Assembly: GCA_028715785.1 (NCBI GenBank)
Contig: JAQURC010000003.1
Coordinates: 27,423-91,422, forward strand
DNA length: 64,000 nt
DNA from: Candidatus Omnitrophota bacterium
GTDB lineage: Bacteria; Omnitrophota; Gorgyraeia; Gygaellales; Profunditerraquicolaceae
Direction: 5' to 3'
Below the pieces are notes generated by a model. That model was given only the letters and a program-made list of their open reading frames with translations. It did no database searches and was not told where the DNA came from. Both the position numbers and the translations under genes were made by a program. The number at the start of each line of letters is the position of its first letter. Position 1 is the stretch's first letter. Positions 1,235 to 61,446 of this stretch are shown here, piece after piece.

Positions 1235-2191
1235 CCTGATATTTTTGGCTTTGTCAAGTACTTCCTCAACGCTTATATCTTCTAAGCTGCTCTTCTCAAT
1301 CACAATGTGCCCTTCTCCCCACGGCCCCCAGCGCTTGGCGGTTTTGCCCGGAAGGTCATTGCGGAAAAGCGCGATTACCGGTGTCCCCACAGCCGCGGCC
1401 AGATGCACCGGCCCGCTGTCACCTGAAATAAGCAGCGAACAACGTTTTAATAACGCGGCTAATTCCACTAAACTTGTCTTATTAATTAAATCCATAACCT
1501 CTGAATAATCTGTCCCCGAAGGCGGCTGAGAATGGGGACTGTCCCCGAATGGGGACTGTCCCCATTCTTCAGTTTTCCCCACAAACACAACCTTCGCCTT
1601 CATCTCCTGCGCAATTCTCCACGCTAGTTCTTTAAACCTCTCAACCGGCCACTGCTTAACCGGGTCGCTGGTAAATGGATGGATCGCAACCGCCCCCGCT
1701 AAAAAATCATATTTGTCATTGCGAGGAAGGCGTAAGCATGACGAAGCAATCTCTTTATTCCGCGTACGCGCCCCAATCAACCCCACTAACTCCAAGTTAC
1801 AATCCACCTCATGCCTGTCACCGAGCGATTTTGTATCTTTTAATTTATGTGTCAGCAAAAATCCCCATTTCCTATTATAGCCAACCCGTACAGGAATCCC
1901 CGCAAAAAAACAAGCGATATGCGCCTCTTTCGTAGGATTTAAAACAACACAGAGGTCAAACTTATGCTTCCTTAAATTCCCTTTGACCTCATCCCAAACC
2001 ACCACCGCATCAACACATTCAACCGCCCCTGCCAATTCGCAAACCGCGGAATTTACCGCCAAAGTAAGTTTTGCCTGCGGGTATAATTCTTTCAGCGCGC
2101 GCATTGCCGGGATATTCAGCAAAAACTCTCCAAACCGGTCATTACGAATAGCCAATATTTTTCTTATCTCAGGTTTTCTGGCCATCAACAA
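1226..2191 (-). CDS. Glycosyltransferase family 9 (LPS heptosyltransferase, WaaF/WaaC-like)
   Basis: The ...SLLISGDSGPVHLAAAVGTPVIALF... motif is characteristic of GT9 heptosyltransferases. It carries an in-frame low-complexity insertion (EEWGQSPFGDSPHSQPPSG) encoded by a palindromic repeat. Confidence 0.8.
   Translation of the reverse strand: MLMARKPEIRKILAIRNDRFGEFLLNIPAMRALKELYPQAKLTLAVNSAVCELAGAVECVDAVVVWDEVKGNLRKHKFDLCVVLNPTKEAHIACFFAGIPVRVGYNRKWGFLLTHKLKDTKSLGDRHEVDCNLELVGLIGARTRNKEIASSCLRLPRNDKYDFLAGAVAIHPFTSDPVKQWPVERFKELAWRIAQEMKAKVVFVGKTEEWGQSPFGDSPHSQPPSGTDYSEVMDLINKTSLVELAALLKRCSLLISGDSGPVHLAAAVGTPVIALFRNDLPGKTAKRWGPWGEGHIVIEKSSLEDISVEEVLDKAKNIRYS
1512..1567. repeat. Family A palindromic array: GTCCCCGAA...GAATGGGGAC-T-GTCCCC GAATGGGGAC-T-GTCCCCATTC (two tandem GGGGACTGTCCCC hairpin units) lying in frame inside the GT9 CDS
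   Basis: Read directly. GGGGAC/GTCCCC arms with a 1-nt centre, duplicated in tandem. Confidence 0.6.
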
Positions 2192-3407
2192 ATTTATTAA
2201 GCGCCAAAGAAATACCGATTATATACCAGAAAACCATTGCTACTCTGGGATAATAAAGGCTGGTTTCGGTAAGGCCATTTACTAAAAAAGCAATTACGCA
2301 AGCAACTAAAGACAGGCCGATTATTTTTAAATACTCATCATTGAGCTTGCGCAATGCATTAAAGGCCTGCCTGAATACCTGAAATAAAAACAGCAAAAAC
2401 ATGGCTAGCCCCAATAAACCAACTTCACCTGCCATCTGTAAGTAGATATTATGCGCGTAGATGGTATCCGCTGTATGCGCGTATTTTTCGGCTTGCTCGG
2501 TCTTATATTTGCCATAATTTCTAGAGAAGGTATTTAGCCCCACGCCGATAAAAGGATGATGCTTAATCATATTTATAGTATTATTGTAAATACTAATCCT
2601 ATCCCGGTTACACATCATGACCAAAGGATTATAGTTAACCTCCTTGGCCCACTGCTTGATATTCTTAGGCATCACAAAAGGAAAGGCTATGAGTATTCCG
2701 ACTAGAATCGAAGTAAGCAGTTTTTTCTTGTTAGCGATACTTAAAAATAATATTGCCAGAAATATCCCCAAACCGGCGCCTCTAGATAAAGACAGATAAA
2801 CTCCGAGTAAACCCAATACACTTGCAAAAAACATTAATATCTTATTCCTGCCTTTGAAATAGAAAAACGTAAGCCCGAAGATTAGTGGAGTGAGCGCCGT
2901 CATATAAATTCCAAAAACATTTGGATTAGGGAATGCGGCCGTCGGCCTGGGTAAACCTATTGCGGCTTGTATAGCGATACGGTGTATAAAATCATAGCCA
3001 AAAACCATCTGCCATAACGCGTCTATTGCCGCAAGGCAGACACCGGAACAGATAGCGATAATAATTCTGGTTATATGTTTCTTATCCCTGACCTCCTCGC
3101 TGCATACCAGGAATATAAGGATATATTTAAGAAGTTTTATGATACCTCCAAAACTCGCACCATAACTGACAGAATTCATAATGGAGATCGCTGAAGCCGC
3201 GAAAAATAGCCCAAAGGATACCAGCGTTAAACGATCGGTAGAAAACGCCTGCCGGGTTATTGACTTTTTAATTATAAATGAAACGCTGAATAAACCGATA
3301 AAAGTATTGGCGATACCCGGGGCGACAGCCACCGAAAAAGGCATTATTACAATTGACCAATAAATCGCAAAATCTAAGAATCTTAATATTTTATCTTTCA
3401 CAGTCAT
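2169..3407 (-). CDS. O-antigen ligase (WaaL/Wzy_C) family integral membrane protein
   Basis: Multi-pass membrane protein with the LSLSRGAGLGIFLAIL motif typical of the O-antigen ligase domain. Confidence 0.6.
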   Translation of the reverse strand: MTVKDKILRFLDFAIYWSIVIMPFSVAVAPGIANTFIGLFSVSFIIKKSITRQAFSTDRLTLVSFGLFFAASAISIMNSVSYGASFGGIIKLLKYILIFLVCSEEVRDKKHITRIIIAICSGVCLAAIDALWQMVFGYDFIHRIAIQAAIGLPRPTAAFPNPNVFGIYMTALTPLIFGLTFFYFKGRNKILMFFASVLGLLGVYLSLSRGAGLGIFLAILFLSIANKKKLLTSILVGILIAFPFVMPKNIKQWAKEVNYNPLVMMCNRDRISIYNNTINMIKHHPFIGVGLNTFSRNYGKYKTEQAEKYAHTADTIYAHNIYLQMAGEVGLLGLAMFLLFLFQVFRQAFNALRKLNDEYLKIIGLSLVACVIAFLVNGLTETSLYYPRVAMVFWYIIGISLALNKFVDGQKT

Positions 3408-3412
3408 CTCCT

Positions 3413-4090
3413 TTAATCAACGAATCTGTATTTAACCATATAAAATACCGCCCAAAGGGCATCCCTTAACCTGATCTTCTTGCCCTCCTTATAAGAACGC
3501 GGATGATAAGAAACGTGCTCTTCCTTTATGCGCAGTTTTCTTTTTAAAGCGGCACAAACTATCTCTACATCAATATCGAATCCGGTAGCGTGAAGTTTCA
3601 AATCCACAAAAGTCGACCTGCGGGCCAGTTTATAACAAGTAGCGTAATCATTAAGCCGCGAACCAAAAAGAAGGTTTAAAGTAAAGGTAAGAAGCCTATT
3701 GCCGAGGCGGTGAATTAATAAACCATGGTATCCTTTAAAGAACCGCGCTCCCAAGACCATATCCAGGTTTCCGCTCTGTATAACCGAAAGCAACTTCAGA
3801 TAATCATTAGGGTCATATTCTAAATCCGCATCTTGAACAATAGCAAATTCGCCCGCGGCATTATCCAGCCCTGTCAGGAACGCAGCGCCCTTACCCCTGT
3901 TTGAACTATGATGAATAACTTTCAGATTATCATAACGCATGTCTCTTAATATTTTATCCGTGCCGTCAGTGGAACTATCATCCACCACCACGATCTCTTT
4001 GTCTACGCCAACGGCATTAATCTTCTCGATAATCTGCCTTACGGTATTGGCTTCGTTATATACCGGAACTATCACAGAAAGTAATGGCAT
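3413..4090 (-). CDS. Glycosyltransferase family 2
   Basis: N-terminal LSVIVPVYNE...VVVDDSSTDGT DxD-type GT2 signature. Confidence 0.8.
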   Translation of the reverse strand: MPLLSVIVPVYNEANTVRQIIEKINAVGVDKEIVVVDDSSTDGTDKILRDMRYDNLKVIHHSSNRGKGAAFLTGLDNAAGEFAIVQDADLEYDPNDYLKLLSVIQSGNLDMVLGARFFKGYHGLLIHRLGNRLLTFTLNLLFGSRLNDYATCYKLARRSTFVDLKLHATGFDIDVEIVCAALKRKLRIKEEHVSYHPRSYKEGKKIRLRDALWAVFYMVKYRFVD

Positions 4091-4091
4091 A

Positions 4092-4799
4092 TTAACCTAG
4101 GATCCTTTTCTTAATTGCCCAAAGGTAAAACTTTAAATAATTAGGAACTAAATTAAACATTCTAAAACTGGATTTACCTTTTTCTCTTTCATGCCATATT
4201 GTAGGCACTTCAGTTATTTTAAAACCCGCGTAATAAGCCTTAAGCGGAAGTTCCATAGATATTTCAAATCCCTTTGACTCTATATTTATGCTATCAATAA
4301 CTTTTTTTCTATACATCTTAAAAGCATTGGCGATATCATGCGTGGGTATCCCAAGCAGATAATAGAGTGACCATCCGGCAAATGCCGAGAAAAAACCCTT
4401 TAGCTTTGAACCGCCAAGCCTGGCCCCGCCTTTTATGTAACGTGAGCCGCAAACTACATCATATCCATCATTAATCTTTCTAATCATCTCTTTTAATGTC
4501 CGCAGATCGTCGCATAGATCTCCCATAACCGGGATTACCAGTTCTCCTTTAGAGTTAGCAAAACCGCACTTAACGGCATTGGCAAAACCTTTTGGCCCAA
4601 GATTATCAACCAGCCTTATATTTGGATATCTTCCCGACAATTCCCTGACTAACGCGGCGGTTTTATCGGTAGAATGGTCATTCACTACAATCAACTCATA
4701 GTCCAGGTCAAGTAAAAACTTGATTTTCTCAATTACACTTATAATATTTTCTTCTTCGTTATGCGCCGGGACAATTATTGATAAATTCATGAGTGTCAT
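4092..4799 (-). CDS. Glycosyltransferase family 2 (polyprenol-phosphate sugar transferase-like); the true start may be the second Met at 4790
   Basis: LSIIVPAHNEEENI...VVNDHSTDKT GT2 signature. The annotated first ATG lies inside a family B repeat copy. Confidence 0.8.
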   Translation of the reverse strand: MTLMNLSIIVPAHNEEENIISVIEKIKFLLDLDYELIVVNDHSTDKTAALVRELSGRYPNIRLVDNLGPKGFANAVKCGFANSKGELVIPVMGDLCDDLRTLKEMIRKINDGYDVVCGSRYIKGGARLGGSKLKGFFSAFAGWSLYYLLGIPTHDIANAFKMYRKKVIDSINIESKGFEISMELPLKAYYAGFKITEVPTIWHEREKGKSSFRMFNLVPNYLKFYLWAIKKRILG

Positions 4800-4827
4800 T
4801 GCGAGCCCCTTTAGGGGCGAAGCAATC
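4793..4827 (+). repeat. Family B structured repeat copy B1 (GTGTCATTGCGAG-CCCCTTTAGGGG-CGAAGCAATC)
   Basis: Read directly. Intergenic between two GT2 genes. A TTGC...GCAA outer stem plus a CCCC/GGGG inner stem can form a hairpin. Confidence 0.6.
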
Positions 4828-4830
4828 GCT

Positions 4831-5613
4831 TCAATCTATTAATTTTCCTTCTTGTGAAGCCTTTTCCCAAATCTTAAGCCATCTTACTTGCGGGCCGATT
4901 ACGCTTAAGATACACCAGGCCAAGCCATGCATGCCGTCTTTGTAGCCTTTTTTTCTGATATAGAGTTTCCAAAATAGCCTAAGCGATTTCCATGTAAGCC
5001 GGTATTTTATTTCTTTTTTACTAACCTTAGGGTTCTCCTTTAGATAAATGGTTGATTCTATATCGGAAAAGAAGTTGCATTTTCCGATAAATTGAGAAAT
5101 TGAATTAAAGGAATAATGATATACTTGCGCATCAATATCTCCTATCGGGCCGTCAACTTTTAGGGTTTCATGGACGCTGCTGCCGACATAAGACGCATTT
5201 GCTTTTTTAGATATCCTTATCATGCGGTCGCGTGAACCGGCATATCTTAAAGGCTTATTCAGGAAATAATTAATTCTAAAATACCTAAACGCAACGTAAT
5301 TGCCCGGATTTTCTATTGCTTGGCGGATTTTCTTTTTCGCATCTTCCGGGAATATTTCATCAGATTCTGTTTGTAAGATCCATTCTCCAGCAGCGTTCTC
5401 TATGCCGATATTACGCTGTTTATCCATATTATAGCCTTCAATTTCATGAGTAACTACTTTTGCCCGGTATTTTTTGCAGATTTCAACCGTTCCGTCAGTG
5501 CCAAGGCTGTCAACCACAACTATTTCATCAACAAGGCCACGCAGGGAATCCAGGCACCTCTCGATTTTTCCCGCTTCATTTTTCACCGGCATTACCGCGG
5601 TCAATTTAGCCAT
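4831..5613 (-). CDS. Glycosyltransferase family 2
   Basis: AVMPVKNEAGKIERCL...VVVDSLGTDGT GT2 signature. Confidence 0.75.
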   Translation of the reverse strand: MAKLTAVMPVKNEAGKIERCLDSLRGLVDEIVVVDSLGTDGTVEICKKYRAKVVTHEIEGYNMDKQRNIGIENAAGEWILQTESDEIFPEDAKKKIRQAIENPGNYVAFRYFRINYFLNKPLRYAGSRDRMIRISKKANASYVGSSVHETLKVDGPIGDIDAQVYHYSFNSISQFIGKCNFFSDIESTIYLKENPKVSKKEIKYRLTWKSLRLFWKLYIRKKGYKDGMHGLAWCILSVIGPQVRWLKIWEKASQEGKLID

Positions 5614-5615
5614 TC

Positions 5616-6290
5616 CTATTTTACTCCTTTAATAAATTCTTCAAGAAAGTTTTCCGGTTTTAAATTCAATAACTTTATCCTATTTGCTTCAAGTCCAGAA
5701 TATGGCATAAGCCTGATATCTTCAGGCGTATAATTGAGCATATTTTCCGGCTTGCCTCTAGTTACAACGCCTACCCCATGGTCACAATCAAGCACAAAGA
5801 CACGAAGATCGCTTCGCAGGCTGCGTAAATGCACAATGGTTTTCCAGACATCTCCGCACCACGGCCCGCCGGATTGGAGAGCAAGATGGCTGGCTTCGCT
5901 TTCAGATTCAGGATTACAGTCGTGCAAAACAATAAAACCAGCATTGTTTAGGTATTTTAATACGTTTAAAACATCTTTTAAGGATTGTTCATAGGTATGT
6001 AGTCCGTCATCTAAAGCAACATCCAGTTTATTCTTATCGAAAAGATTAGAGTTATTTAGGAAAAAATCATCGCTGGTTACTTCAAAAAACATTTCTTTTC
6101 TAAAATTTAAAATGTTTACGATTACGCCTTTAATTTTTTTCTTTAGCTTTAATTTAAAATGCGGATCTACGGCAATTTTTCTTTTAGCATGTATGGCAAA
6201 GAAACTGTTGCCATAATCAGTGCCAATTTCCAAATAAGTTTTTCCTTTTATTTTATCTAATAATGCCTGCACTGCCTGTATCCTATCCAT
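5616..6290 (-). CDS. Putative class I SAM-dependent methyltransferase (Methyltransf_24/TylF-like)
   Basis: YLEIGTDYGNS glycine-rich motif-I-like segment, about 220 aa, sugar-cluster context. Weak assignment. Confidence 0.4.
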   Translation of the reverse strand: MDRIQAVQALLDKIKGKTYLEIGTDYGNSFFAIHAKRKIAVDPHFKLKLKKKIKGVIVNILNFRKEMFFEVTSDDFFLNNSNLFDKNKLDVALDDGLHTYEQSLKDVLNVLKYLNNAGFIVLHDCNPESESEASHLALQSGGPWCGDVWKTIVHLRSLRSDLRVFVLDCDHGVGVVTRGKPENMLNYTPEDIRLMPYSGLEANRIKLLNLKPENFLEEFIKGVK

Positions 6291-6297
6291 TAATTCT

Positions 6298-9238: not shown

Positions 9239-9262
9239 TATGCCAGAATTGTTTTACGGAAA

Positions 9263-11480: not shown

Positions 11481-11486
11481 TTCTAA

Positions 11487-12751: not shown

Positions 12752-12767
12752 ATAAACCTACCTTAAG

Positions 12768-15208: not shown

Positions 15209-15209
15209 A

Positions 15210-26951: not shown

Positions 26952-27950
26952 TTAAATATTGTAGATCCCGGTTTTGTATCTCTTTAAGTTTTCCCTTTTC
27001 TTAAACCATATAATTGTCTCTTCAAGACCTTTCTCTAAGCTATATTTTGGCTGCCAGCCCGTCAGAGAAGTTATTTTTTTATTGCTGCCGAGGAGGCGTT
27101 CTACCTCCGAACCCTTAGGCCTCTTGCGTTCTTCGTCAATGATGATCTTCGCGCGCCGGTTCAACTTATCAACTAAGATTTTCGCCAGTTCTTCAACAGA
27201 TACTTCGATCCCGCTGGAAATATTAATCTCTTCTCCTATGGTTTTTTTAGAGCCGGCAATCTCTAAAAAAGCGCGGCAGACATCTTTTACGTAATTAAAA
27301 TCGCGGGTTGGCACCAAGTTTCCCAAACGAATCTCTCTGGCTCCGGCCAGTAATTGAGTAATAATTGCCGGGATTATGGCCCGCGCGGACTGTCGCGGAC
27401 CATAGGTATTAAAGGGACGCGCAATTACGATTGGTAATTTAAAAGACCGATAAAAAGATTCCGCTAAACGATCAGCAGCGATTTTAGTTGCGCTATATGG
27501 AGACTGAGCCTGTAGAGGATGTTTTTCATCAATTGGCACATATTGAGCTGTCCCATAAACTTCCGAAGTAGAAGTAATAATTATTTTCTTTACATCAAGC
27601 TTTCTGGCCGACTGCAATATGTTAAGAGTGCCTTTGATATTAGTATCTGCATACGAATCCGGTGATTGATAGGAAAACGGAATTGCAATCAGGGCAGCCA
27701 GGTGGAATACGATATCGCAACTTTTCATTGCTTTCTCAACTCCATGCACATCACGAATATCGCCCGGGAAGACCTCAATCCGCTTTATTTTGCTATCCGG
27801 AAGGGAATCAAGCCAGCCCCACGAATTAAAAGAGTTATAATAAACAAAGGCTCTCACATCATAATCCCGTTCAATTAAAAATTCGGTTAGATGGCTTCCT
27901 ATAAAACCATCAGCTCCAGTTATTAATATCTTTTTTCGGGTTTTTTCCAT
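26952..27950 (-). CDS. NAD-dependent sugar-nucleotide 4,6-dehydratase/epimerase (SDR)
   Basis: ILITGADGFIGSHL. SPYSATKIAAD YxxxK motif. Confidence 0.8.
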   Translation of the reverse strand: MEKTRKKILITGADGFIGSHLTEFLIERDYDVRAFVYYNSFNSWGWLDSLPDSKIKRIEVFPGDIRDVHGVEKAMKSCDIVFHLAALIAIPFSYQSPDSYADTNIKGTLNILQSARKLDVKKIIITSTSEVYGTAQYVPIDEKHPLQAQSPYSATKIAADRLAESFYRSFKLPIVIARPFNTYGPRQSARAIIPAIITQLLAGAREIRLGNLVPTRDFNYVKDVCRAFLEIAGSKKTIGEEINISSGIEVSVEELAKILVDKLNRRAKIIIDEERKRPKGSEVERLLGSNKKITSLTGWQPKYSLEKGLEETIIWFKKRENLKRYKTGIYNI

Positions 27951-35088: not shown

Positions 35089-36057
<969 letters not shown>

Positions 36058-36062
36058 TTATA

Positions 36063-36100
36063 GATTGCTTCGTCGGGCTTTGCCCTCCTCGCAACGACAC
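36063..36100 (-). repeat. Family B repeat copy B3 (GTGTCGTTGCGAGGAGGGCAAAGCCCGACGAAGCAATC), intergenic between gmd and fcl
   Basis: Read directly. Confidence 0.55.
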
Positions 36101-36115
36101 ATATAGTCCCTATTA

Positions 36116-37563: not shown

Positions 37564-38370
37564 CTAAAAAGGAATGGTGATTCCGGCTTCGATTGCCTGT
37601 TCTTTTTGGCGGGATTTCAGCCTTATAAAGGCTTCAGCATCAAGGTGTTCTAAGAATTTACGGGTCATAGTAAGAGTTGCGCCTAGGGGTTGGCCAAGCT
37701 CGTTCTTAAGCGCGAAAATAACTTTGTTACGGCCAAAGGTTACCTTTGCCCCGAATTCTATTGCCCTGACCTTGCCTTGGCCATAATCCATCTGAAAAGT
37801 TAGCCCTAAATCGCGGCCAAACCTCCATTCACCGTAGAGAATAATTATCTGGCCGGGCGCGCTCAGGCGGCTTTGGCGAATACCTATACCAATGCGATAA
37901 CAGATCTCTCCTTTTTTAGGGTAAAATGTCGGCGATTCAAGCTGGACCTTGAATTCAAAACGCGAAGTTGAGCTGCCTTCAAGTATATAAACAAGGCGAT
38001 TGGCCGAAGGTATGTTCCAATAACCTTTAAAAGTTAATCTGTCGCGGCCGTCTTCTGACGTATATTCGATCTGTTGATTATCATTTAGTTTCCAGCTTCC
38101 TTTAAAGGTGTAGGTTTCAGGCGGGCCTTTGCGGCCGGTAACTTCAAAGCAAAGTTGGTTGTAATCATTGGCGCGCCAGGTGCCTTTGAGTTTAAGTATA
38201 CGCAGATGGGATTGCCCCTGCTCTTCTGAGATTGCTTCGTCGCCTTCGGCTCCTCGCAATGACGGTCTCGTAGGCTTATTCCATGTTTGGATGGTTTCGA
38301 TAACCAGAGCATCGGATTCAGCGGCGATAAAACGTTTACGCAGGGTATTTTTTGGCTTAATTGATTTCAT
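37564..38370 (-). CDS. Hypothetical beta-rich protein, unknown function
   Basis: No recognisable motifs. Carries an in-frame family B repeat insertion (SLRGAEGDEAIS). Confidence 0.3.
   Translation of the reverse strand: MKSIKPKNTLRKRFIAAESDALVIETIQTWNKPTRPSLRGAEGDEAISEEQGQSHLRILKLKGTWRANDYNQLCFEVTGRKGPPETYTFKGSWKLNDNQQIEYTSEDGRDRLTFKGYWNIPSANRLVYILEGSSTSRFEFKVQLESPTFYPKKGEICYRIGIGIRQSRLSAPGQIIILYGEWRFGRDLGLTFQMDYGQGKVRAIEFGAKVTFGRNKVIFALKNELGQPLGATLTMTRKFLEHLDAEAFIRLKSRQKEQAIEAGITIPF
38230..38265 (-). repeat. Family B repeat copy B4, in frame inside the hypothetical gene
   Basis: Reverse complement GTCATTGCGAGGAGCCGAAGGCGACGAAGCAATC. Confidence 0.55.
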
Positions 38371-39673: not shown

Positions 39674-40720
39674 TTAGAGTTTTCTTAGCTTCGCCTCATT
39701 ATTCCTGATCCAGTTAAAAATATCATTCAGGATCGTTATTGCCGGTTTTTGCGGCTGCCATTTTAGTTCCCGGGTAACTTTTTTGTTATCCGTAAGGTAT
39801 ACGGCGATATCGCCCGGACGGTTACGCAAGTTGTGGCCAACTTTAACGTTATTACCGGAAATCTGCCGGCAAAGCGCGGTGGTTTCCAATAAAGAAAGGC
39901 TTATTTCTCTTGCGCCGCCGACATTATAAGTATTGCCGCTTAACTTAGGAAGGCTGTTTGCCTGTATGCCAATTAGCCGGCAAAGGTCATCAACATGTAA
40001 AAGGTCGCGCACCTGTTTGCCTTGCCCGCCAAAACCGATATATTTAAGCGGCTTTTTAAAATAGTGCGCCAGCATCCAATAGGTAAATACCCCCTGGTCA
40101 ACCTTGCCAAACTGCCATGGCCCGGCAACCACTCCGCAGCGGTTCACAACCGCCTTGATCCCGTAGGCGGCAATATACTCTTGCAGGATAAATTCCGACG
40201 CCAGCTTAGTCGCCCCATACAAAGTCTTTGGGCCGGTTAAAGAAAAATCCGTATCGATACCGCTAAAACGCGGCCACTCAAACCTGCTCTTTGATTCAAG
40301 GCGCTTGATCGCGTTTATTTTTTCATAGGGATAAACCCTGCTTGTGGAAAGGAAAATCATCCCCGCTTTACGCTTGCGGCACAACTCAAGGCAGTTAACC
40401 GTGCCCATCAGGTTGGTATCAATAATATAAGATGGATTCTGATAACCCGCCAATACCGACGGCTCGGCTGAACATTCCAATATCAAATCTATATCAAATT
40501 CCAGATCCAGGTCTTTGGGGCGCCGGGCATCACCGCGGATAAACTTAACGCCGTTTTCCTTAAGCCGCGGTAAATTAAATTCGCTTCCCCGGCGGACCAA
40601 GTTATCCAAAACAAAAACTTTAAGCCGCGGATATTCGCGCTTAAAATATACCGCCAGGTTACTGCCGATAAACCCCGCGCCGCCGGTGATTAAAATATTA
40701 TTATACTTCATATTTTCCAC
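39674..40720 (-). CDS. NAD-dependent sugar-nucleotide epimerase/dehydratase (SDR)
   Basis: ILITGGAGFIGSNL. YGATK YxxxK. Confidence 0.75.
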   Translation of the reverse strand: MENMKYNNILITGGAGFIGSNLAVYFKREYPRLKVFVLDNLVRRGSEFNLPRLKENGVKFIRGDARRPKDLDLEFDIDLILECSAEPSVLAGYQNPSYIIDTNLMGTVNCLELCRKRKAGMIFLSTSRVYPYEKINAIKRLESKSRFEWPRFSGIDTDFSLTGPKTLYGATKLASEFILQEYIAAYGIKAVVNRCGVVAGPWQFGKVDQGVFTYWMLAHYFKKPLKYIGFGGQGKQVRDLLHVDDLCRLIGIQANSLPKLSGNTYNVGGAREISLSLLETTALCRQISGNNVKVGHNLRNRPGDIAVYLTDNKKVTRELKWQPQKPAITILNDIFNWIRNNEAKLRKL

Positions 40721-40751
40721 AATATTTGTTTTGTAACTGGTTATCTTTTAT

Positions 40752-40778
40752 GGAATTACATAGACTGTCTATAATTAT
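40752..40778. promoter_or_regulatory. Family F palindromic motif (ATAATTATAGACAGTCTATGTAATTCC in gene sense) about 35-60 nt upstream of the SDR gene start at 40720
   Basis: One of four copies of the (A/G)TAGACAGTNTA(C/T)GTAATTC motif, each just upstream of a gene start. Confidence 0.45.
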
Positions 40779-41832: not shown

Positions 41833-41853
41833 ATAGACAGTTTACGTAATTCC
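41833..41853. promoter_or_regulatory. Family F motif copy (ATAGACAGTTTACGTAATTCC) 20-40 nt upstream of the SDR gene start at 41814
   Basis: Read directly. Confidence 0.45.
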
Positions 41854-41906
41854 ATCAAAGATAAACAGTTACATAAGAAATACTTCGAATGAATTAGGGA
41901 ATATTT

Positions 41907-42926
41907 CTATTTATTATACAGTTTATTAATATCCCCGAGTTTGCTCTTAAGCCACCCCTGATGCTTAAGCGACCAGTCCACAGTAAACTTAAGTCCTTGC
42001 GCGAGTTTAACAATCGGACGCCAACCGAGTTTTTGATAAAGCTTTTTGGAGTCCAAGCTATATCTTATATCATGGCCTAAACGATCCTTAACAAATTCAA
42101 ACCTGTCCTGGCTGACACCCAGGGTTCTTAGCAATAACTTGACTGTGTCAATATTCTTACTTTCGCAAGCGCTGCCTAAATTATAAATCTGGCCCGTTGC
42201 GCCTTTATTCATAACCGCCAAAATTCCTCTGGCGCAATCATCAACATAAAGCCATTCACGCACATTTAGCCCTTTGCCGTAAACCGGAACCTTACCGCAT
42301 CCTATTATTTTCAAGATCGCCAGCGGGATCAACTTCTCAGGATACTGCCATGGCCCGTAATTATTTGAGGGGCGGATGATTATCGCGGGAAATTTATAAG
42401 TCCTGATATACGACTGCGCCAGAAGGTCTGCTGCCGCTTTAGATGCCGCATAAGGACTGTTAGGCTTAACGGGAGAATTTTCGTCAAACTTGCCATTGGC
42501 AATTTCTCCGTAAACTTCATCGGTACTGATAAAAATAAATTTCTTTACCCCAAACTTACGGCTGGTATCCATAAGAATCTGCGTACCCTTAATATTGGTT
42601 TCAATAAACGGCGAGGCATCGTTAATACTGCGGTCAACGTGGCTCTCGGCGGCAAAATGCACGACGATATCCGGCTTTTCTCTAGCAAATATTGTTTCTA
42701 TCTGTTTTCTATTGCAAATATCGGTTTTATAAAATTTGAATTTTCCCTCCACCTCCGCAAGGCGCTTAAGGTCTCCTGCGTAAGTAAGTTTATCGGCTAT
42801 AATAACCGAGCCGTAGGGGAGGTTTAAACCTCCCCTACGGCAATCACCGAGAATAAGCCTCACAAAGGCGCTGCCGATAAACCCCGCGCCGCCGGTAACT
42901 AGGATTTTAGGTATTCTTTTACGCAT
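41907..42926 (-). CDS. rfbB: dTDP-glucose 4,6-dehydratase
   Basis: [16 protein letters not shown]...ADKLTYAGDL...FIFISTDEVYGE...SPYAASKAAADLL matches RfbB. Contains an in-frame palindromic insertion ([12 protein letters not shown]). Confidence 0.9.
   Translation of the reverse strand: MRKRIPKILVTGGAGFIGSAFVRLILGDCRRGGLNLPYGSVIIADKLTYAGDLKRLAEVEGKFKFYKTDICNRKQIETIFAREKPDIVVHFAAESHVDRSINDASPFIETNIKGTQILMDTSRKFGVKKFIFISTDEVYGEIANGKFDENSPVKPNSPYAASKAAADLLAQSYIRTYKFPAIIIRPSNNYGPWQYPEKLIPLAILKIIGCGKVPVYGKGLNVREWLYVDDCARGILAVMNKGATGQIYNLGSACESKNIDTVKLLLRTLGVSQDRFEFVKDRLGHDIRYSLDSKKLYQKLGWRPIVKLAQGLKFTVDWSLKHQGWLKSKLGDINKLYNK
42811..42840. repeat. Family C perfect 30-nt palindrome CCGTAGGGGAGGTTTAAACCTCCCCTACGG, in frame inside rfbB
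   Basis: Read directly. GTAG...CTAC ends around a GTTTAAAC core. Flanked by ...ACCGAG on both sides. Confidence 0.65.
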
Positions 42927-44583: not shown

Positions 44584-44859
44584 CTACCCCTCCTGCCTGC
44601 CGGCAGGCAGGCCATATTTAAAATATAAAAATATTAATATCGATAAACTCACTAAAGTTACCGCGTTTGCCAATATGATTATCGGATCCTTGCGGGAAAT
44701 CCCGTAAATTATCCACAGTAAAACGCCGGCAGAAAGTTGGAACAGCATAACCGGGCTGACATCTTTAACAGACCGCATCCGTATAGACCTGGCTATCTGC
44801 GGAATGAAGGAAAACGTGGTTAAAGTGGCGGCAATTGCACCAATCAGCGTCCAAAACAT
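44584..44859 (-). CDS. SemiSWEET-family sugar transporter (PQ-loop, 3 TM)
   Basis: 91 aa. [19 protein letters not shown]-loop motif. [26 protein letters not shown] closely resembles known bacterial SemiSWEETs. The C-terminal tail GLPAGRQEG is a read-through of a 20-nt palindrome. Confidence 0.7.
44590..44609. repeat. Perfect 20-nt palindrome CCTGCCTGCCGGCAGGCAGG between the SemiSWEET and rfbA genes
   Basis: Read directly. Confidence 0.6.
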
Positions 44860-44900: not shown

Positions 44901-44926
44901 ATAATTATAGACAGTGTACGTAATTC
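44901..44926. promoter_or_regulatory. Family F motif copy (ATAATTATAGACAGTGTACGTAATTC) upstream of the SemiSWEET start and downstream of RAYT; the sense strand contains TATAAT
   Basis: Read directly. Inverted relative to the F copy on the other side of the RAYT gene. Confidence 0.45.
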
Positions 44927-44942
44927 TATTAAAGTTAGATGG

Positions 44943-45629
44943 TTACGAAACAAATATTGCGGCTTTCCGGCCTTGCCTTCTCGGAAAATAATGCGCGCCT
45001 GTCTTCACCAGCCTGCGCAAGAAATCTTGATCACCGCGAGGAATCTCTATATTCGAGAAATAGGCCTCCTTTTTATTATCAAAAACACTCAAGAATTCTT
45101 TATAAGCTGCCTGCCGTCCAACAGCCTCTTTTCCGAAATCTTCAAAATCAGGGCTAACCCGCGTTATGCCATCCTCTTGCCCCAAACAATAAAATCGCGC
45201 ACTACTATGCGCATATTCACAGGCCTCTATAACCATCCCCGCGCGCACCGGATTTCTCTCTACATATCTGCCGCAATTTTTCAAATACAAATCCTTTTGT
45301 ATCGGCTGCAATTTAAACCTGCCTTGCCATAAAAAACCCACTGCGTTATATTGCTTATGGTAATAATGGCTATACGCCCGATGTAATCCTGCCATAAATT
45401 TCGAAATTAGCTCCGGGTATTCAAATTCAACCACAAGATGGTAATGATTTGGCATAATGACCCAATGATATATTTTTGCATCAAACCTATTGCTATACTC
45501 GCAAAGCAGCCTCTCGAAATGACCAAAATCCTCAGATTCTTGGAAAATTACTTTGCGCCCACTGCTTCGGCTAAACGCATGATAAACTAATGATTGTTGC
45601 AACTGATGCTTACGCGCGTACGATGGCAT
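44943..45629 (-). CDS. IS200/IS605-like HuH tyrosine transposase of REP-associated (RAYT) type
   Basis: HuH motif VIMPNHYHLVVEF. C-terminal AHSSARFY region resembles the RAYT catalytic Tyr/HSS signature. Single gene with no tnpB, flanked by inverted family F motifs. Confidence 0.7.
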   Translation of the reverse strand: MPSYARKHQLQQSLVYHAFSRSSGRKVIFQESEDFGHFERLLCEYSNRFDAKIYHWVIMPNHYHLVVEFEYPELISKFMAGLHRAYSHYYHKQYNAVGFLWQGRFKLQPIQKDLYLKNCGRYVERNPVRAGMVIEACEYAHSSARFYCLGQEDGITRVSPDFEDFGKEAVGRQAAYKEFLSVFDNKKEAYFSNIEIPRGDQDFLRRLVKTGAHYFPRRQGRKAAIFVS

Positions 45630-45736
45630 TGCCTTTTCTCCTTCTGTTACAACTGACGCAGAAGATAGAAAAATCTAACAATATTTATTTTAGGAGAAAA
45701 TATTTCTTACAGATATGATTGGGGAATATAGGGTTA

Positions 45737-45753
45737 GGTAAACTGTCTACAAG
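45737..45753. promoter_or_regulatory. Family F motif partial copy (sense CTTGTAGACAGTTTACC) upstream of RAYT, in inverted orientation to the copy at 44901
   Basis: Read directly. Confidence 0.4.
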
Positions 45754-45775
45754 ATAAGTTTTTAGAATTTTAAGA

Positions 45776-46942: not shown

Positions 46943-46954
46943 AGTTATCCACAG

Positions 46955-46982
46955 CCGTAGGGGAGGTTTAAACCTCCCCTAC
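46955..46982. repeat. Family C palindrome copy (CCGTAGGGGAGGTTTAAACCTCCCCTAC), intergenic between rpsA and tyrS
   Basis: Identical core to the copy inside rfbB. Confidence 0.65.
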
Positions 46983-48564: not shown

Positions 48565-48646
48565 GTGTCATTGCGAGCCCTGAAAGGGCGAAGCAATCTA
48601 TCTTTTATGAGATTGCCGCGTCGCCTTTGGCTCCTCGCAATGACAC
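48565..48646. repeat. REPIN-like doublet: two family B copies in inverted orientation (48565-48598 plus strand, 48611-48646 minus strand) separated by 12 nt
   Basis: GTGTCATTGCGAGCCCTGAAAGGGCGAAGCAATC ... GATTGCCGCGTCGCCTTTGGCTCCTCGCAATGACAC. Intergenic between plsC and rpsA. Confidence 0.65.
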
Positions 48647-50671: not shown

Positions 50672-50684
50672 TTAGCGCGGGGTG

Positions 50685-51316
<632 letters not shown>

Positions 51317-51320
<4 letters not shown>

Positions 51321-54837: not shown

Positions 54838-54842
54838 TGGAT

Positions 54843-55160: not shown

Positions 55161-55196
55161 TTGTTATCCTCCTTTAAAATGAATCCGCCAAAACAA

Positions 55197-55250
55197 GGGG
55201 ACGGTTCTATTTTTCAATCAAATCAGGAGACGAAAAATAGAACCGTCCCC
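55197..55250. repeat. Family D hairpin element GGGGACGGTTCTATTTTTC-(16 nt)-GAAAAATAGAACCGTCCCC between rng and rplU; may also act as the rng terminator
   Basis: Read directly. 19-bp perfect stem. Confidence 0.6.
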
Positions 55251-55298
55251 TGGATTTTCACCTAAGAACTTTATATTATATACCCGCTGATTTTGGGG

Positions 55299-57024: not shown

Positions 57025-57095
57025 AAAAATATAAGAACCCCATTTCCCGATTAGCTTCGAAACAGTTTCGAGGCTAAAGGGGAAATGGGGGCATA

Positions 57096-58829
57096 TTATT
57101 TCTTTTTCTTCTTCCTATCTGCCGGCTCAGCCTTGACCACTACCGGCTCATTACGCTCCAATCTTTTTTCTAACTTTGTGATTTCCTCGGGAGTAAACTC
57201 ACCTTCCCTAACTATCCTGGCTTTGATAAAAATCAAAAGATCGATCTTGGTGGTATGAGTCGTTTCCCGGCCAAAAAACTTTCCTAAACCCCAGGGAAGA
57301 TCTTTTAAGAAAGGGATCCCGATAAACTCTTTCGCCTTAACATCCTTAAGCAAACCGCCGATTACAACAGTCTCTCCATCCCTAAGCAGCACCTGTGTCT
57401 GGGCTTCGCGCACATCGATAACCGGATAACTTGTGGTTGTCGTAGCGCCTCCGGCAGTAGAACTGGCTGTAATACTGGAAGTAGAAGAAGTAATGCTGGG
57501 ATGAATGATCATATTAATATAGCCTTCTTCGCTTATCTGAGGCACGACATTTAAACGAATGCCTATTTCCTGATAATAATCTAATGTCTGGGTAACTGTT
57601 GCCCCTGTCCCGGATGTAGCCGTGCCTGCGGTAACCGTGGAAGCTAATATGGGGGTATGATAACCCACCAACATCGATGCTTCCTGGTTATCAAGGGTAA
57701 GAACGCTTGGCGCGGATAAGGTATTCGTATTGGCATCATCCTCCAGGGCATGTATAACTGCTTCAAATTTTGTTCCGGTCAGTTTCTGGAATACAAACTC
57801 CGCCCCTGCGTTATAAGGCTCATATCCTAAGATTGTGGTTGTTGCCGGGCTAAACACAGAAGGCTTCAACGGGTTTGTAGTTGTAGTGATGGTGCCTCCA
57901 TGGCCTCCTATATCTTTACCATTAGCAACTTCCTGCATCGTAATCGTATTTGACCTGGCGGTATTATTGCCGCCTAAACCCCAATCAACGCCAAGATCCC
58001 TCAACTTATCCCGGTTAACCTCGATAATTTTAGTCTCAATAAGCACCTGTTTGGGTTTAACATCAATCTTGGGTAAAATGATATTACGTATTCTATCGAG
58101 AGTACTGGCTGTATCGGTAATCACCAGAATCTTGGATTTTACGGAAGGATCAAACTCCGCCTTCTTCATTACTGTCTCTCCGGTAGCGCTCTTCTCATAA
58201 GAAACCGTTTCGGACTTAATCTCTCCGGCTGATTCCTTTACTAAAGTTGCGCTGGAACTTTCCGTTTCTTTACCGATTTGAAATGTCCCAAACTTCCAAC
58301 CCTTTTGGCCGCGGGTATATAGAACCGATATCCTTCCGCGCGGAGAAAGCAAAGGAATAATAATTTTTTGCGCATCCTGGGCATCTAAAAATTTAAGCGT
58401 GATAATCTCCGTCTGTAAAGGCTCCTCGGAGGCGATCTTGGCCACATTTTCTACCTTAGTGACCAGGATAACATTACCCTGCCTCTGGTAGCCAAAACCA
58501 TAAGTCTTTAAGATTACATCCAGGGCCATCTCCCAGGGCACATCGCTCAGGCGCACCGAAATATTGCCGATAACATCCGGAGTAGTTACGATATTTATTC
58601 CGGATTTATAAGAGATAATTTTAAGGACATTGTTGATATCCGCCTCCCTAAAATCAAAAGTCACGTTTCCCGCACCCGTATAAGGGATACCTCCAGTTTC
58701 TGCCACAGGCACCTGTTGTATCGGCAGCGCTTTGGCCAGATCGGGCCCGCTTTGCGTATCCTTAGCCTCCTGCGCGGCAAAAGCAAAACAATAAAAAGTA
58801 AAAATAAATATTAAAAATATTTTTTTCAC
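57096..58829 (-). CDS. pilQ: Type IV pilus secretin
   Basis: C-terminal secretin domain (VVIGGLLKDVKAKEFIGIPFLKDLPWGLGKFFG). N-terminal signal peptide. Confidence 0.85.
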   Translation of the reverse strand: MKKIFLIFIFTFYCFAFAAQEAKDTQSGPDLAKALPIQQVPVAETGGIPYTGAGNVTFDFREADINNVLKIISYKSGINIVTTPDVIGNISVRLSDVPWEMALDVILKTYGFGYQRQGNVILVTKVENVAKIASEEPLQTEIITLKFLDAQDAQKIIIPLLSPRGRISVLYTRGQKGWKFGTFQIGKETESSSATLVKESAGEIKSETVSYEKSATGETVMKKAEFDPSVKSKILVITDTASTLDRIRNIILPKIDVKPKQVLIETKIIEVNRDKLRDLGVDWGLGGNNTARSNTITMQEVANGKDIGGHGGTITTTTNPLKPSVFSPATTTILGYEPYNAGAEFVFQKLTGTKFEAVIHALEDDANTNTLSAPSVLTLDNQEASMLVGYHTPILASTVTAGTATSGTGATVTQTLDYYQEIGIRLNVVPQISEEGYINMIIHPSITSSTSSITASSTAGGATTTTSYPVIDVREAQTQVLLRDGETVVIGGLLKDVKAKEFIGIPFLKDLPWGLGKFFGRETTHTTKIDLLIFIKARIVREGEFTPEEITKLEKRLERNEPVVVKAEPADRKKKKK

Positions 58830-59194: not shown

Positions 59195-59741
59195 ATGTCC
59201 GAATGACCAAGCTGACTTTTTGTTTCAGATAATCCGGCATCCGCGCCGAAATCTTCAGCTCAGCCACTCCCATAAAGACCGGTGAATTTTCCAGGCTGTG
59301 AATAAACTTACCCAGGCTATGGTAATCACAGATTAAATCCAAGTTAATTAGGACCGGGGCAAGCTTGCCGGCGGCAACAGCTGATTTTTCTGTTTCACGG
59401 CTGGTCCGAATCTGCATAATTCTTACATCGAATTTATTCGCCTCGCTTGAAATATCCCGCAGAAGCCCGGAGACACGGCTTTCGGCAATCAGCTTAGAAG
59501 ACCTGTTGGCTGCCTTGTAAGATTCCAAAACAGGCCTGCTTTTAAAAGCGCGCATATCCTCCAGATCACGATTCAAATTTTTAAGATCCTTTTCAAAACG
59601 GCTAATTTTGGGATCCAGGCTTTTTAATCCGGCAACCTGGGCCTTTAAGATATAATTGGCCTCCACATAAACAATAAAGACGCAAAATATGATGATTAAT
59701 ATTTTTTTCTGTTTATCTAATTGTATATTGGCCAGGTTCAT
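59181..59741 (-). CDS. pilO: Pilus assembly protein PilO
   Basis: Single TM plus coiled-coil. Gene order pilMNOPQ. Confidence 0.6.
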   Translation of the reverse strand: MNLANIQLDKQKKILIIIFCVFIVYVEANYILKAQVAGLKSLDPKISRFEKDLKNLNRDLEDMRAFKSRPVLESYKAANRSSKLIAESRVSGLLRDISSEANKFDVRIMQIRTSRETEKSAVAAGKLAPVLINLDLICDYHSLGKFIHSLENSPVFMGVAELKISARMPDYLKQKVSLVIRTYVSK

Positions 59742-60343
59742 TTGGATTTCAAAGCTCCTACCAAGACAAAATCCGCGACATCATAGCTTCCGATATTCCT
59801 TTTCTGCGCGTTACTTAATTCAAAATTTGAAAAATCCTTGAAAAATTCTTTATCTGACTTTAAGTTATCCAACAGCTTGTTAACCAGGACAAGCTCCTCC
59901 TTTTGTAACGAAATAACCGAACCCTGAATAATGAGATTCTGCTTGCCCAGCGACAGGTCATTAAACCAGACTCCGGCGGGTAAATTCAGGCTTAATTTAT
60001 TTAATTTCTGCGCCCAGAGAATCCTTTGGCTGATTAAAAACTGCGTCAGGCCGGCATCCTGAGAAACCGCTGAATACTGCCGGTTGAATTCATCCAGTAT
60101 TTTTTTCCGCGGCTCAAGGGCCGTCCATTTACGCTTTAAAGAAGCCAGCTGTCCGCCTTTAGCTATGCCGATTACCGCAAAATAAAGATGCGCTAAAATA
60201 AATAATCCCAGTAAAACAGGAATGGCATAAATAAACAACTTGTCCCGGCTAACCCCTGTCATGGTCGTTACCATAACCTGCTCAAGGGTTTTTTCCTTAG
60301 TTTTAACTCTTAGTTCCTGGGGTAATAAATTTATCTCGATCAT
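59738..60343 (-). CDS. pilN: Pilus assembly protein PilN
   Basis: MIEINLLPQELR canonical PilN N-terminus. Confidence 0.7.
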   Translation of the reverse strand: MIEINLLPQELRVKTKEKTLEQVMVTTMTGVSRDKLFIYAIPVLLGLFILAHLYFAVIGIAKGGQLASLKRKWTALEPRKKILDEFNRQYSAVSQDAGLTQFLISQRILWAQKLNKLSLNLPAGVWFNDLSLGKQNLIIQGSVISLQKEELVLVNKLLDNLKSDKEFFKDFSNFELSNAQKRNIGSYDVADFVLVGALKSK

Positions 60344-61446
60344 CTTTGGCGTAAAGCCAGGCCTACGGCAACATTAAACTGACCGGAAAAATTGTTTAAT
60401 CTCTGCGCGTCTATTTTATCGGAGATCTTTATCTGCTTAAACGCATCCCAAGGCTCTACCGGGATGCCTAAACAGGCAGATAACATCTCGGTTAAACCGG
60501 CTATTTTACTCCCTCCGCCGCTTAAGAATATCTTGGCCACGCTTGAGGAGTTCTGGCTTTCGTAATAATCAAATGACGTGCGGATCTCTGCCGCTAAATT
60601 TATAAGCACGCTCTCCACGCCGGCCTTAACCTTATTGGCTCTTTCAGGATCCGGATTGTGGCTTTGGCTATCCGTAGCCAAACCACCGCCCTCTGGCTTG
60701 TGGCTTTGGCTATCTGTAGCCAAACCACCGCCCTCTGGCTTGATTTTAAGCGCTTCGGCGGCTTTAAAATCCAGCTCAAAAATATCCATAATCTTCCTGG
60801 TAAAATTTGCTCCCGCGGAATGGATATCGCGGCTTAAACGCGGTATCCTGTTATCAAGGATATTGACATTGCTGATTGAAGCCCCGATATTCAAAAGGCA
60901 AATGGACTTGTTCTCCGGCACATCGATTTTAGGATAATTAAAATTAAACGCGTTAACCAGCGCTATCGAATCAATATCAATGATATTAGGCCTTAATCCG
61001 GCATTTTCAAGGGTTTTATGCCTTTGCCGCATCAATTCTTTTTTGATCGCGGCGATCAAGACAAGCATCTTGTTTTCAGGCAAGTCGTTTTTGAGGATTT
61101 CGGCATCTAGATCAACCTCGTCGATGGAAAAAGGAATATGTTTCTGGGCCTCGAACTTAAGCGCCTGTTTAAGCTCGGCTTTATTCATCCGCAGAAAATT
61201 TACATAACGGATAACCGTGGATGAGCCGCAAAAAGAAATGTTTACCAGATCGGCATCCTGGGCGTGCCTGATCTTCTTCAGCGCCTCCGTCGGATCAAGC
61301 TGGCCCTCCTCAAAGTCAAAATTAACCAGCTCGACAGCTTCGTTAATTTTTAATTTTACGCATTTGATCGACTGCGTGCCGATATCCAGGCCGATACTGA
61401 ACTTTTCTTTTGCTTTAGGAAATCCTATTTTAGAAAAAATATTCAT
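60340..61446 (-). CDS. pilM: Type IV pilus assembly ATPase-like protein PilM (actin-like fold), with an in-frame 28-aa tandem-repeat insertion
   Basis: IGLDIGTQSIKCVKL N-terminus. Insertion (PEGGGLATDSQSHK)x2 encoded by a 42-bp tandem repeat. Confidence 0.8.
   Translation of the reverse strand: MNIFSKIGFPKAKEKFSIGLDIGTQSIKCVKLKINEAVELVNFDFEEGQLDPTEALKKIRHAQDADLVNISFCGSSTVIRYVNFLRMNKAELKQALKFEAQKHIPFSIDEVDLDAEILKNDLPENKMLVLIAAIKKELMRQRHKTLENAGLRPNIIDIDSIALVNAFNFNYPKIDVPENKSICLLNIGASISNVNILDNRIPRLSRDIHSAGANFTRKIMDIFELDFKAAEALKIKPEGGGLATDSQSHKPEGGGLATDSQSHNPDPERANKVKAGVESVLINLAAEIRTSFDYYESQNSSSVAKIFLSGGGSKIAGLTEMLSACLGIPVEPWDAFKQIKISDKIDAQRLNNFSGQFNVAVGLALRQR
60657..60740. repeat. Family E: 42-bp tandem direct repeat x2 (GTGGCTTTGGCTATC(C/T)GTAGCCAAACCACCGCCCTCTGGCTT), each unit with a TTTGGCTA-TCCG-TAGCCAAA hairpin, inside pilM
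   Basis: Read directly. One mismatch between the two units. Confidence 0.7.

Follow-up and report, generated by a model that had tools for sequence, protein, structure and literature searches.

How do short palindromic repeats come to lie, in frame, inside the genes of a bacterium whose genome is almost entirely coding? The question is raised by a 64-kb stretch of the genome of a Candidatus Omnitrophota bacterium (64,000 nt, positions 27,423 to 91,422 of contig JAQURC010000003.1; hereafter the window), for which an earlier note had described dispersed and amplified palindromic elements, inserted in frame much like those of Rickettsia at places where orthologous proteins have no such segment. 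Our analysis supports this description. Several families of palindromic repeats coexist in this very compact Omnitrophota genome, and there are gaps at the units in orthologs of all five host proteins, namely PilM, RfbB, a conserved hypothetical protein, Fcl and GT9. Maximal open reading frames (ORFs) make up 97.5% of the window, the non-ORF DNA amounts to 1,562 nt in 34 spacers, and the credible genes all lie on the minus strand.

Repeat families in genes and spacers

The five host ORFs are real genes. The GT9 heptosyltransferase-like ORF (1226–2191, minus strand; Pfam Glyco_transf_9, E = 7.6e-27) is a 100% match to the Omnitrophica protein P0121, which comes from a metagenome-assembled genome (MAG); Fcl, too, has a MAG protein in NCBI that is 100% identical. 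Three others have homologs of known structure in the PDB: fcl, encoding GDP-L-fucose synthase (35089–36054, minus; Pfam Epimerase, PDB GDP-L-fucose synthases at E = 6e-68), rfbB, encoding dTDP-glucose 4,6-dehydratase (41907–42926, minus; Pfam match, PDB matches at E = 2.7e-89), and pilM, encoding the type IV pilus protein PilM (60340–61446, minus; PDB PilM matches, and Pfam PilM_2 at E = 1.3e-45, matched in two stretches). The fifth encodes a hypothetical protein of 268 amino acids (37564–38370, minus) that belongs to no Pfam or NCBIfam family and has orthologs in L015, L025 and L061, where L-numbers denote fetched DNA loci of other genomes or contigs, with L201, L202 and L203 coming from close relatives, and P-numbers denote homologous proteins. 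In these three Omnitrophota loci the orthologs adjoin fcl/rfb genes.

Four families can be distinguished in the 64-kb window; expected numbers of pattern matches were taken from shuffled sequences. Family A is a 13-nt palindrome, GGGGACNGTCCCC, whose pattern matches twice against 0.03 expected. Its one array in the window lies in GT9 (1510–1568) and consists of two perfect GGGGACTGTCCCC units (1534–1546 and 1551–1563) and a degenerate third (1512–1524), together encoding WGQSPFGDSPHSQPPSG. The doublet at 1530–1563 has a 17-nt period (Tandem Repeats Finder, TRF, score 68) and a DNA fold at z = -7.7. In other genomes, family A units are found within Fcl, GT9 and RfbB.

Family B is best described as YGTCATTGCGAG-variable hairpin-CGAAGCAATCY, that is, an inner hairpin of variable sequence enclosed by the conserved ends (Y)GTCATTGCGAG ... 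CGAAGCAATC(Y). Three of the seven copies in the window are in frame in genes: one in fcl (35428–35466, core 35434–35461, minus), encoding a 12-residue peptide; one in the hypothetical protein (38226–38265, core 38231–38260, minus), encoding SLRGAEGDEAIS; and one in GT9 (1713–1755, core 1718–1750, plus), encoding EIASSCLRLPRNDK. The other four are in spacers. The copy at 4793–4830 (core 4798–4826, plus; fold z = -2.65) fills a 31-nt spacer between two genes, and another, upstream of fcl (36063–36096, minus), has a slightly diverged left end (CGTTGCGAG...) and sits in a 61-nt spacer (36055–36115). The last two form an inverted doublet (48565–48646, copies 48570–48597 and 48612–48641) in a 120-nt spacer; this REPIN-like pair folds over 89 nt at -24.9 kcal/mol (z = -6.8). 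The GT9 copy (core 1718–1750) and the one upstream of fcl, the latter detected in a relaxed pattern scan, are additions to the list in the earlier note. Over 43 nt the copy in the hypothetical protein is 88% identical to the intergenic sequence 48602–48644. The base before GTCATTGCGAG is C in one of the six window copies with an exact left end.

Family C is a GTAG-N6-TTTAAA-N6'-CTAC hairpin, with two pattern matches against none expected, and the terminal GTAG and CTAC are present in all three of its copies in the window. The copy in rfbB (42809–42841; AGCC-GTAG-GGGAGG-TTTAAA-CCTCCC-CTAC) encodes a 10-residue peptide (+G) between the GxxGxxG helix and strand beta-2. The perfect palindrome previously described here is present and in frame, but it is 32 nt long (42810–42841) rather than 30; it folds at z = -8.3. 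This copy is identical at 30 of 30 positions to the one at 46953–46982, 4.1 kb away, which takes up most of a 47-nt spacer. The third copy (61983–62008; GTAG-CTGACG-TTTAAA-CGTCAG-CTAC) has all stem positions changed with full compensation while keeping GTAG, loop and CTAC, and it is nested in the loop of a further spacer hairpin, termed family F (61955–62050; arms GTTCTATTTTT and AAAAATAGAAAC). Family D is the 42-nt unit of pilM, with one array in the window (60650–60742) that holds two hairpin units and encodes (KPEGGGLATDSQSH) x 2. The units of this tandem repeat (60656–60742; TRF score 167) are 97% identical, and each folds at z = -6.0. GTAG is terminal in family C; in family D it occurs only inside the hairpin, and the ends of families A and B lack it.

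When their DNA is folded as a single strand, families A, C and D and the doublet of family B reach z = -5.8 to -8.3 relative to shuffles. Single family B copies fold more weakly: by nearest-neighbour energies two have z of about -2.6 and two (at 1718 and 38231) are no better than shuffles, these last two having been recognised from their conserved ends and not from fold energy.

In real genes all copies leave the frame intact and contain no stop codon. Family A is open in all frames, family C in one of three, the one that rfbB uses, and family D in two of three. By count about half of the loci are genic, yet the six spacer loci fall in 1,562 nt and the seven genic loci in 61,817 nt of ORF DNA, which makes the density about 30-fold higher in spacers. 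The five in-frame sites of the earlier note were borne out in coordinates and frame, as was a 20-nt perfect palindrome (CCTGCCTGCCGGCAGGCAGG, 44592–44611) that lies within the last codons of a SemiSWEET ORF (44584–44859), whose orthologs have different C-terminal tails. Its statement that the same units recur in spacers holds for families B and C; family A and the pilM unit have no spacer copies within the window.

The window has no Rfam match at gathering thresholds; the family B doublet has none even at E <= 1, and at that limit the family C spacer gives chance-level matches only, far below threshold. No clear target-site duplication was found at the insertions, where palindrome junctions are ambiguous; there is a possible 3-nt CAA at the pilM site. 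The terminal ends derived from insertion sequences (IS) that characterise MITEs, the miniature inverted-repeat transposable elements, are absent from these elements.

Protein loops that hold different repeats in different genomes

In Fcl, GT9, RfbB and the hypothetical protein, the repeat family that occupies a given loop differs from genome to genome. We aligned 120 homologs each of Fcl, GT9 and PilM, and for Fcl also compared the DNA of 80 species representatives; in the 120-homolog alignments insertions concentrate at one to three sites per protein. The gaps in orthologs match the repeat units, as the earlier note had anticipated, but many orthologs carry another element at the position instead of an empty site.

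Fcl shows this most fully. Once the 12 codons of the window are removed, E. coli Fcl aligns, and in about 45 of 70 species representatives the loop is short and has the baseline form DAxxxxxxxIxVWGTG. The 120 homologs (75–100% identical) reveal a single insertion hot spot, occupied in about half of them by B-type sequences (including RHCEE...), by the A-type RGLSPKGTVP in at least 45 sequences, and by several other kinds. In the DNA the inserts are nearly all palindromes of unrelated sequence, with at least seven unrelated types at this one spot, and some loops hold mixed and nested elements (P0017, P0087). Some of them are B variants with ATTCT/AGAAT in place of ATTGC/GCAAT. In one homolog, P0055, an A-type unit is triplicated in tandem together with flanking host codons (GLSPQGTVPEILVWGSG x 3), so that part of a conserved beta-strand motif is duplicated. 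An AlphaFold2 model of the window protein (mean pLDDT, the predicted local distance difference test score, 82) places the insert at the end of helix 184–200 and in the coil before strand 211–215, with a pLDDT of 59 for residues 201–210. The Fcl insert lies in a helix-to-strand loop; in PilM the 28 inserted residues are predicted coil at pLDDT 25–34, in a model that is poor overall (mean pLDDT 59) and was used only for this coil prediction.

GT9 has two element-bearing sites. At site 2, where the window carries the family A array, at least 30 of the 120 orthologs have A-type and 11 have B-type sequences, and 47 have the short baseline; baseline orthologs (296–303 amino acids) are without the array. 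At site 1, where the window carries family B, 26 are B-type, 11 A-type and 83 baseline. Compared with its close relative L202, the 30-nt family A doublet of the window is an exact reverse complement (GGGGACAGTCCCC-ATTC-GGGGACAGTCCCC in L202, GGGGACTGTCCCC-GAAT-GGGGACTGTCCCC in the window), a reversal that would be explained either by a flip in place or by re-insertion.

In RfbB, the orthologs of L003 and L006 (58% identity) have nine residues fewer exactly at the palindrome, the excess in the window protein being 9–10. The clean gap is confined to such close orthologs; among the more distant PDB homologs the length of the loop is naturally variable and the gap is less clear. The loop that holds family C in the window holds a family A doublet in L025, another Omnitrophota genome, where an N-terminal extension of RfbB (RDCPRRGLS; L025 5325–5415) carries a further A-type doublet. 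L202 was discarded for this comparison, as only a 30%-identical paralog is found there. For the hypothetical protein, the L025 ortholog is without the segment and the L015 ortholog has a different 29-nt palindrome at the same site.

Most PilM orthologs are 338–340 amino acids long and read AAEELKI|NPDPER without interruption, and a subset has one 14-residue unit at that point. Among relatives 83–98% identical the number of units is zero in L203, one in L201, two in the window and four in P0256; the DNA of L201 and the window is 98.4% identical over 5 kb, and at pilM the difference is exactly one 42-nt unit. PilM has two hot spots, and units of the type ..GLATDSQSH occur at both in the same open frame, the second site being occupied in 16 other orthologs. 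The pilM unit itself is therefore dispersed, although it has no other copy in the window or in about 1.7 Mb of fetched loci.

Differences between close relatives extend to the spacers. After the tetratricopeptide repeat (TPR) gene, L201 and L203 share one hairpin element, where the window has the family C variant nested in family F instead. In L201 the C-terminal tail of CbiQ reads into a family B doublet (5556–5621) that is absent from L203. At these genic and spacer sites, then, close relatives differ by inversion in place, duplication in tandem, nesting and the replacement of blocks.

Family B in other genomes and the Y1 transposase of the window

Of the four families, B was followed furthest. 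Its exact-ends pattern is found at no fewer than 120 loci in metagenome contigs from many habitats, and again at 120 or more in IMG/VR viral contigs. The commonest form is GTCATTGCGAG-GAGCGAAGCGA-CGAAGCAATC, with the core GA-GCGAAGC-GA. Directly outside the ends, at least 95% of copies have pyrimidines; among the matches listed, 77 of 148 metagenome and 52 of 165 viral copies have a C before GTCATTGCGAG, and most others a T. The inner sequences vary widely and are hairpin-like, in that 40% of 101 distinct ones beat 95% of their shuffles. Inverted doublets are common in the metagenome loci, with many plus/minus pairs 10–60 nt apart. The GCGAAGC core matches the unusually stable DNA mini-hairpin d(GCGAAGC), here flanked by possible tandem G.A pairs, and the energy model probably understates the stability of family B DNA in single-stranded form. 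The mini-hairpin is a structural motif and not, like family B, a repeat family.

In the metagenome contig L152, nine family B inverted doublets lie between 3900 and 5000 in a perfect 121-nt tandem array. In IMG/VR contigs classed as viral (L204–L323) the copies lie mostly between ORFs; some of these contigs hold four to six, each with an inner stem of its own and in some contigs all in one orientation. The window has three copies on plus and four on minus, and orientation relative to genes is inconsistent in the viral contigs. We also set aside the genic fraction in metagenomes (49 of 155, with ORFs of at least 150 amino acids) as unreliable, since most of these contigs are 60–70% GC and the flanking peptides look like spurious ORFs. 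Literature searches with family B DNA words or the encoded peptides returned chance primer matches or nothing, and those combining Omnitrophota with palindromic repeats returned papers related to CRISPR only. Family B appears to be undescribed, and it is found across phyla and in viral contigs.

Could an enzyme encoded in the window have moved the repeats? The earlier note had pointed to a transposase of the RAYT type (REP-associated tyrosine transposase, REP being repetitive extragenic palindromic). The ORF concerned (44943–45629, minus, 228 amino acids) is indeed a Y1 (HUH) transposase-like gene, with Pfam PF01797 Y1_Tnp at E = 8e-15 and the motifs PNHYHLVV and RYVERNPVRAG, and its best NCBIfam match is the RAYT model REP_Tyr_transpos (NF047646; 62.1 bits, versus 21 bits for the IS200 model). 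However, it stays below the cut-off of the RAYT model, and the repeat that flanks it is another one. No PDB sequence matches it at E <= 0.01. At its 3' end lies a repeat of about 62 nt (44901–44962, plus; ATAGACAGTNTACGTAATTC...AAACAGTTAC...) that is unrelated to families A–D, with further copies at 41833–41887 and, inverted, at 40717–40778, so that three spacers of the rfb-like cluster carry it in all; one copy includes a TATAAT when read on the strand of the gene. Upstream of the gene there is a shorter match in inverted orientation (TTGTAGACAGTTTACCTAA, about 45735–45760). The name 'TIRtrons' has been given to RAYT genes that have long, unrelated terminal inverted repeats (TIRs) at their flanks (PMC3733652), and from its sequence context the Y1 gene looks 'TIRtron'-like, bracketed by a TIR-like repeat of its own. 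A tblastn search with the Y1 protein gave no match in the 1.7 Mb of fetched loci. That this protein mobilises families A–D is inference only. GTAG is a tag used by RAYTs (PMC8266576) and, by analogy with known RAYT recognition, the GTAG-ended family C would be its most plausible substrate.

How the repeats may have spread and persisted

We consider it likely that the insertions are selfish hairpin repeats, similar to REPs and to Rickettsia palindromic elements (RPEs), of which several families spread through the genome and are kept in spacers and at tolerant in-frame sites of proteins. Short hairpin-forming units of about 13–42 nt would spread through the compact genome, presumably as hairpins of single-stranded DNA on which a HUH/Y1 (RAYT-like) enzyme acts in trans. 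Genic copies would persist only if the added length is a multiple of three, the frame used is without stop and the site is a surface loop, an inter-domain linker or a terminus; others would be removed by selection, and the survivors would be translated as short, probably disordered, peptide loops. The roughly 30-fold excess in spacers is what purifying selection on random insertion predicts and, with some 97.5% of the genome in ORFs and almost no neutral DNA, tolerant protein loops would be a main refuge for such hairpins. Resident hairpins would stay unstable, undergoing tandem duplication, flipping in place, receiving other hairpins into their loops or being exchanged for other family members, and this continuing turnover would give one protein loop different repeats in different lineages. 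The inserts themselves we take to be neutral or slightly deleterious passengers, not adaptations.

Similar elements are known. In-frame palindromic repeats are established for RPEs and for GTAG and CGTC REPs in genes of Opitutus, Thauera and Xanthomonas (PMC3733652). Such intragenic REPs are stem-loops of 20–40 nt that lie mostly between genes, near gene 3' ends; a minority is in frame, as singles or dimers adding about 10–30 residues, sometimes twice per gene, and in Xanthomonas recB two different REPs occupy about the same site (PMC3733652). The elements of the window are alike in being short stem-loops that are mostly intergenic by density and in some cases in frame. They differ in host phylum (Omnitrophota), in the presence of at least four families within 64 kb, in having 7 of 13 loci genic, in the restriction of the GTAG end to family C, and in that here the loops of several proteins hold different families across many genomes. 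By tag and description, family B may be compared with CGTC REPs: it has a YGTC end, which is CGTC in about half of the metagenome copies, no dedicated flanking transposase, and three of its seven window copies in frame in genes. RPEs are likewise palindromic, in frame in essential genes and translated as extra peptide segments; the likeness is functional only, the RPE host being obligately intracellular and the host here an environmental lineage, free-living or epibiotic. RPE-4 and RPE-6, shorter elements that have been classed as CGTC REPs (PMC3733652), are the closer RPE parallel to family B. As for the REPIN-RAYT systems (PMC8266576, PMC5581495), family B inverted doublets fold into one long hairpin, family C has a guide-like GTAG and a Y1/HUH protein is encoded nearby, but the Y1 gene is not flanked by A–D and falls short of the RAYT cut-off, and family B is not lineage-specific. 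RPE-1, by its length of about 100–150 nt, is far larger than the 13–42 nt units of the window. The finding is thus a known kind of element in a new phylum and not a new class of system; what is notable is the coexistence of multiple families in a compact genome, the recurrent use of the same loops by different families, and the presence of family B across phyla and viral contigs.

Several points weigh against the reading of the inserts as selfish REP/RPE-like repeats. No enzyme is linked to any of families A–D: the Y1 ORF scores 62 bits where the RAYT cut-off is 80, the repeat at its flanks is the 62-nt, TIR-like one, with the nearest A–D units 1.3 and 2.1 kb off, and tblastn detects no homolog of it in 0.63 Mb of metagenome loci that bear family B. 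In lineage-specific REP/RAYT pairs it would be unusual for the ends to be conserved, as those of family B are, from phylum to phylum and in viral contigs. Families A, B and D are also without GTAG at their ends, and the insertions show no clear target-site duplication. At GT9 site 1 the B-type sequence replaces a baseline segment of near-equal length, with no net insertion, and relative to L202 (92% identical) a block of about 75 nt, sharply bounded and reaching beyond the element, is replaced; from the alignment this looks like recombination between alleles. Finally, the hairpin stems of the Fcl coding copies are perfect and compensated (GCGCGAAGCGC in the window, CCCCGAAGGGG in L001 and L002), which could mean selection on structure rather than neutrality.

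A more far-reaching version, which we put forward tentatively, is that hairpins serve as landing pads. A first insertion would attract others, which nest in it or overwrite it, and the loops of Fcl, GT9, RfbB, PilM and further proteins would be hypervariable cassettes that outpace the genes around them, with family B as an undescribed, virus-carried element of many phyla, moved by an enzyme other than a flanking RAYT.

It is also possible, though we think it doubtful as the main cause, that the loops were hit once or a few times long ago and that the resulting versions were then shuffled among lineages by allelic recombination or horizontal transfer. The block at GT9 site 1, larger than the element, fits this, as do the insert-bearing Fcl genes, which form two clades in a neighbour-joining tree. 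Fcl has clearly been exchanged horizontally: the protein is 70–83% identical across Omnitrophota, Planctomycetota (anammox), Thermodesulfobacteriota, Nitrospirota, Chloroflexota, Elusimicrobiota and Patescibacteria and the archaea Methanoperedens and Methanocellaceae, which points to wide transfer of the gene. Yet the seven or more unrelated palindrome types at the Fcl hot spot still require several independent events, single loops hold mixed or nested elements (P0017 and P0087, and family C in F), and the uninserted L007 and L025 lie within the insert-bearing Fcl clade. The tree was considered as an arbiter and rejected, as it does not tell one old insertion with later turnover apart from insertions that recurred in lineages rich in repeats. 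It is probable that recombination has a part in the same-site pattern, in particular at GT9 site 1.

Unlikely, by comparison, is a purely local origin without transposition, in which slippage and intrastrand template switching at quasi-palindromes create the units and tandem expansion multiplies them. Among close relatives pilM does vary by tandem copy number alone (1, 2 and 4), the in-place flip of the GT9 doublet is the outcome expected of template switching at a hairpin, some Fcl-loop inserts in other genomes are idiosyncratic long palindromes (the AKVKAE...PQPQPHP type), and in P0055 host codons were triplicated with the element. Such processes account for amplification and inversion but not for dispersal, as identical or nearly identical units stand at unlinked loci: family C at 30 of 30 positions, family B at seven window sites and in other genomes, family A in three proteins and the pilM unit at two sites.

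That the inserts are kept for a function seems rather improbable. The hairpin might pause translation between domains, stabilise the mRNA or bind a protein, or the peptide might be a useful variable loop; the perfect, compensated stems of coding copies would agree with this, as would the occupation of the same positions in many lineages and the conservation, with compensatory changes, of two hairpins in spacers, one upstream of rplU and the other downstream of the secretin gene. On the other hand, the different families and frames encode peptides that bear no relation to one another, many orthologs, close ones included, work without any insert, and the same units fill intergenic spacers and are predicted to be unstructured where translated.

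We regard it as highly improbable that the inserts escape translation by ribosome hopping or removal from RNA. Ribosomes hop over the byp elements of yeast mitochondria and in T4 gene 60, and the inserts share the general look of byp elements, which are short GC-rich hairpins in coding regions; but kept frames, absent stops and the use of open frames (in rfbB and at both PilM sites) are what translation predicts and bypassing does not require. If the inserts are translated, junction peptides such as IKPEGGGLATDSQSHK are expected. An assembly or binning artefact at repeats, conceivable as the source is a MAG, is hardly credible, since the same architectures with intact ORFs occur in independent assemblies (NCBI, JGI, ENA and Logan).

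The repeats bear on annotation, as they inflate and diversify proteins in Omnitrophota and many uncultured lineages, explain length variation among orthologs that are otherwise 80% identical and, as spacer copies, give rise to spurious "hypothetical proteins". The lineage is a natural experiment on which loops of well-known enzymes tolerate 10–40 extra residues, and the differences between close relatives in copy number, inversion, nesting and replacement could reveal how hairpin repeats without GTAG move.

Some other features of the window are of the same general kind. Between the RNase E/G and rplU genes lies a hairpin with 26-nt arms (55190–55257; GGGGACGGTTCTATTTTTC / GAAAAATAGAACCGTCCCC), kept in L203 (16100–16160) with compensated changes, for which a terminator and an rplU leader are possible roles; the sequence of its arm is found again in the spacer 61955–62050. 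Next to GT9 is an AbiEi-like antitoxin gene (602–1195), in L202 an AbiEii gene stands beside the AbiEi homolog, and the spacer between the AbiEi-like gene and GT9 (1200–1235) is filled by a 36-nt AT-rich near-perfect palindrome. Both relatives have kept a hairpin with 37-nt arms (57027–57101) that lies between the secretin gene and the DUF2344 gene, and a partial copy, 90% identical, at an unrelated site of L201 (2329–2376) marks it as another dispersed spacer family.

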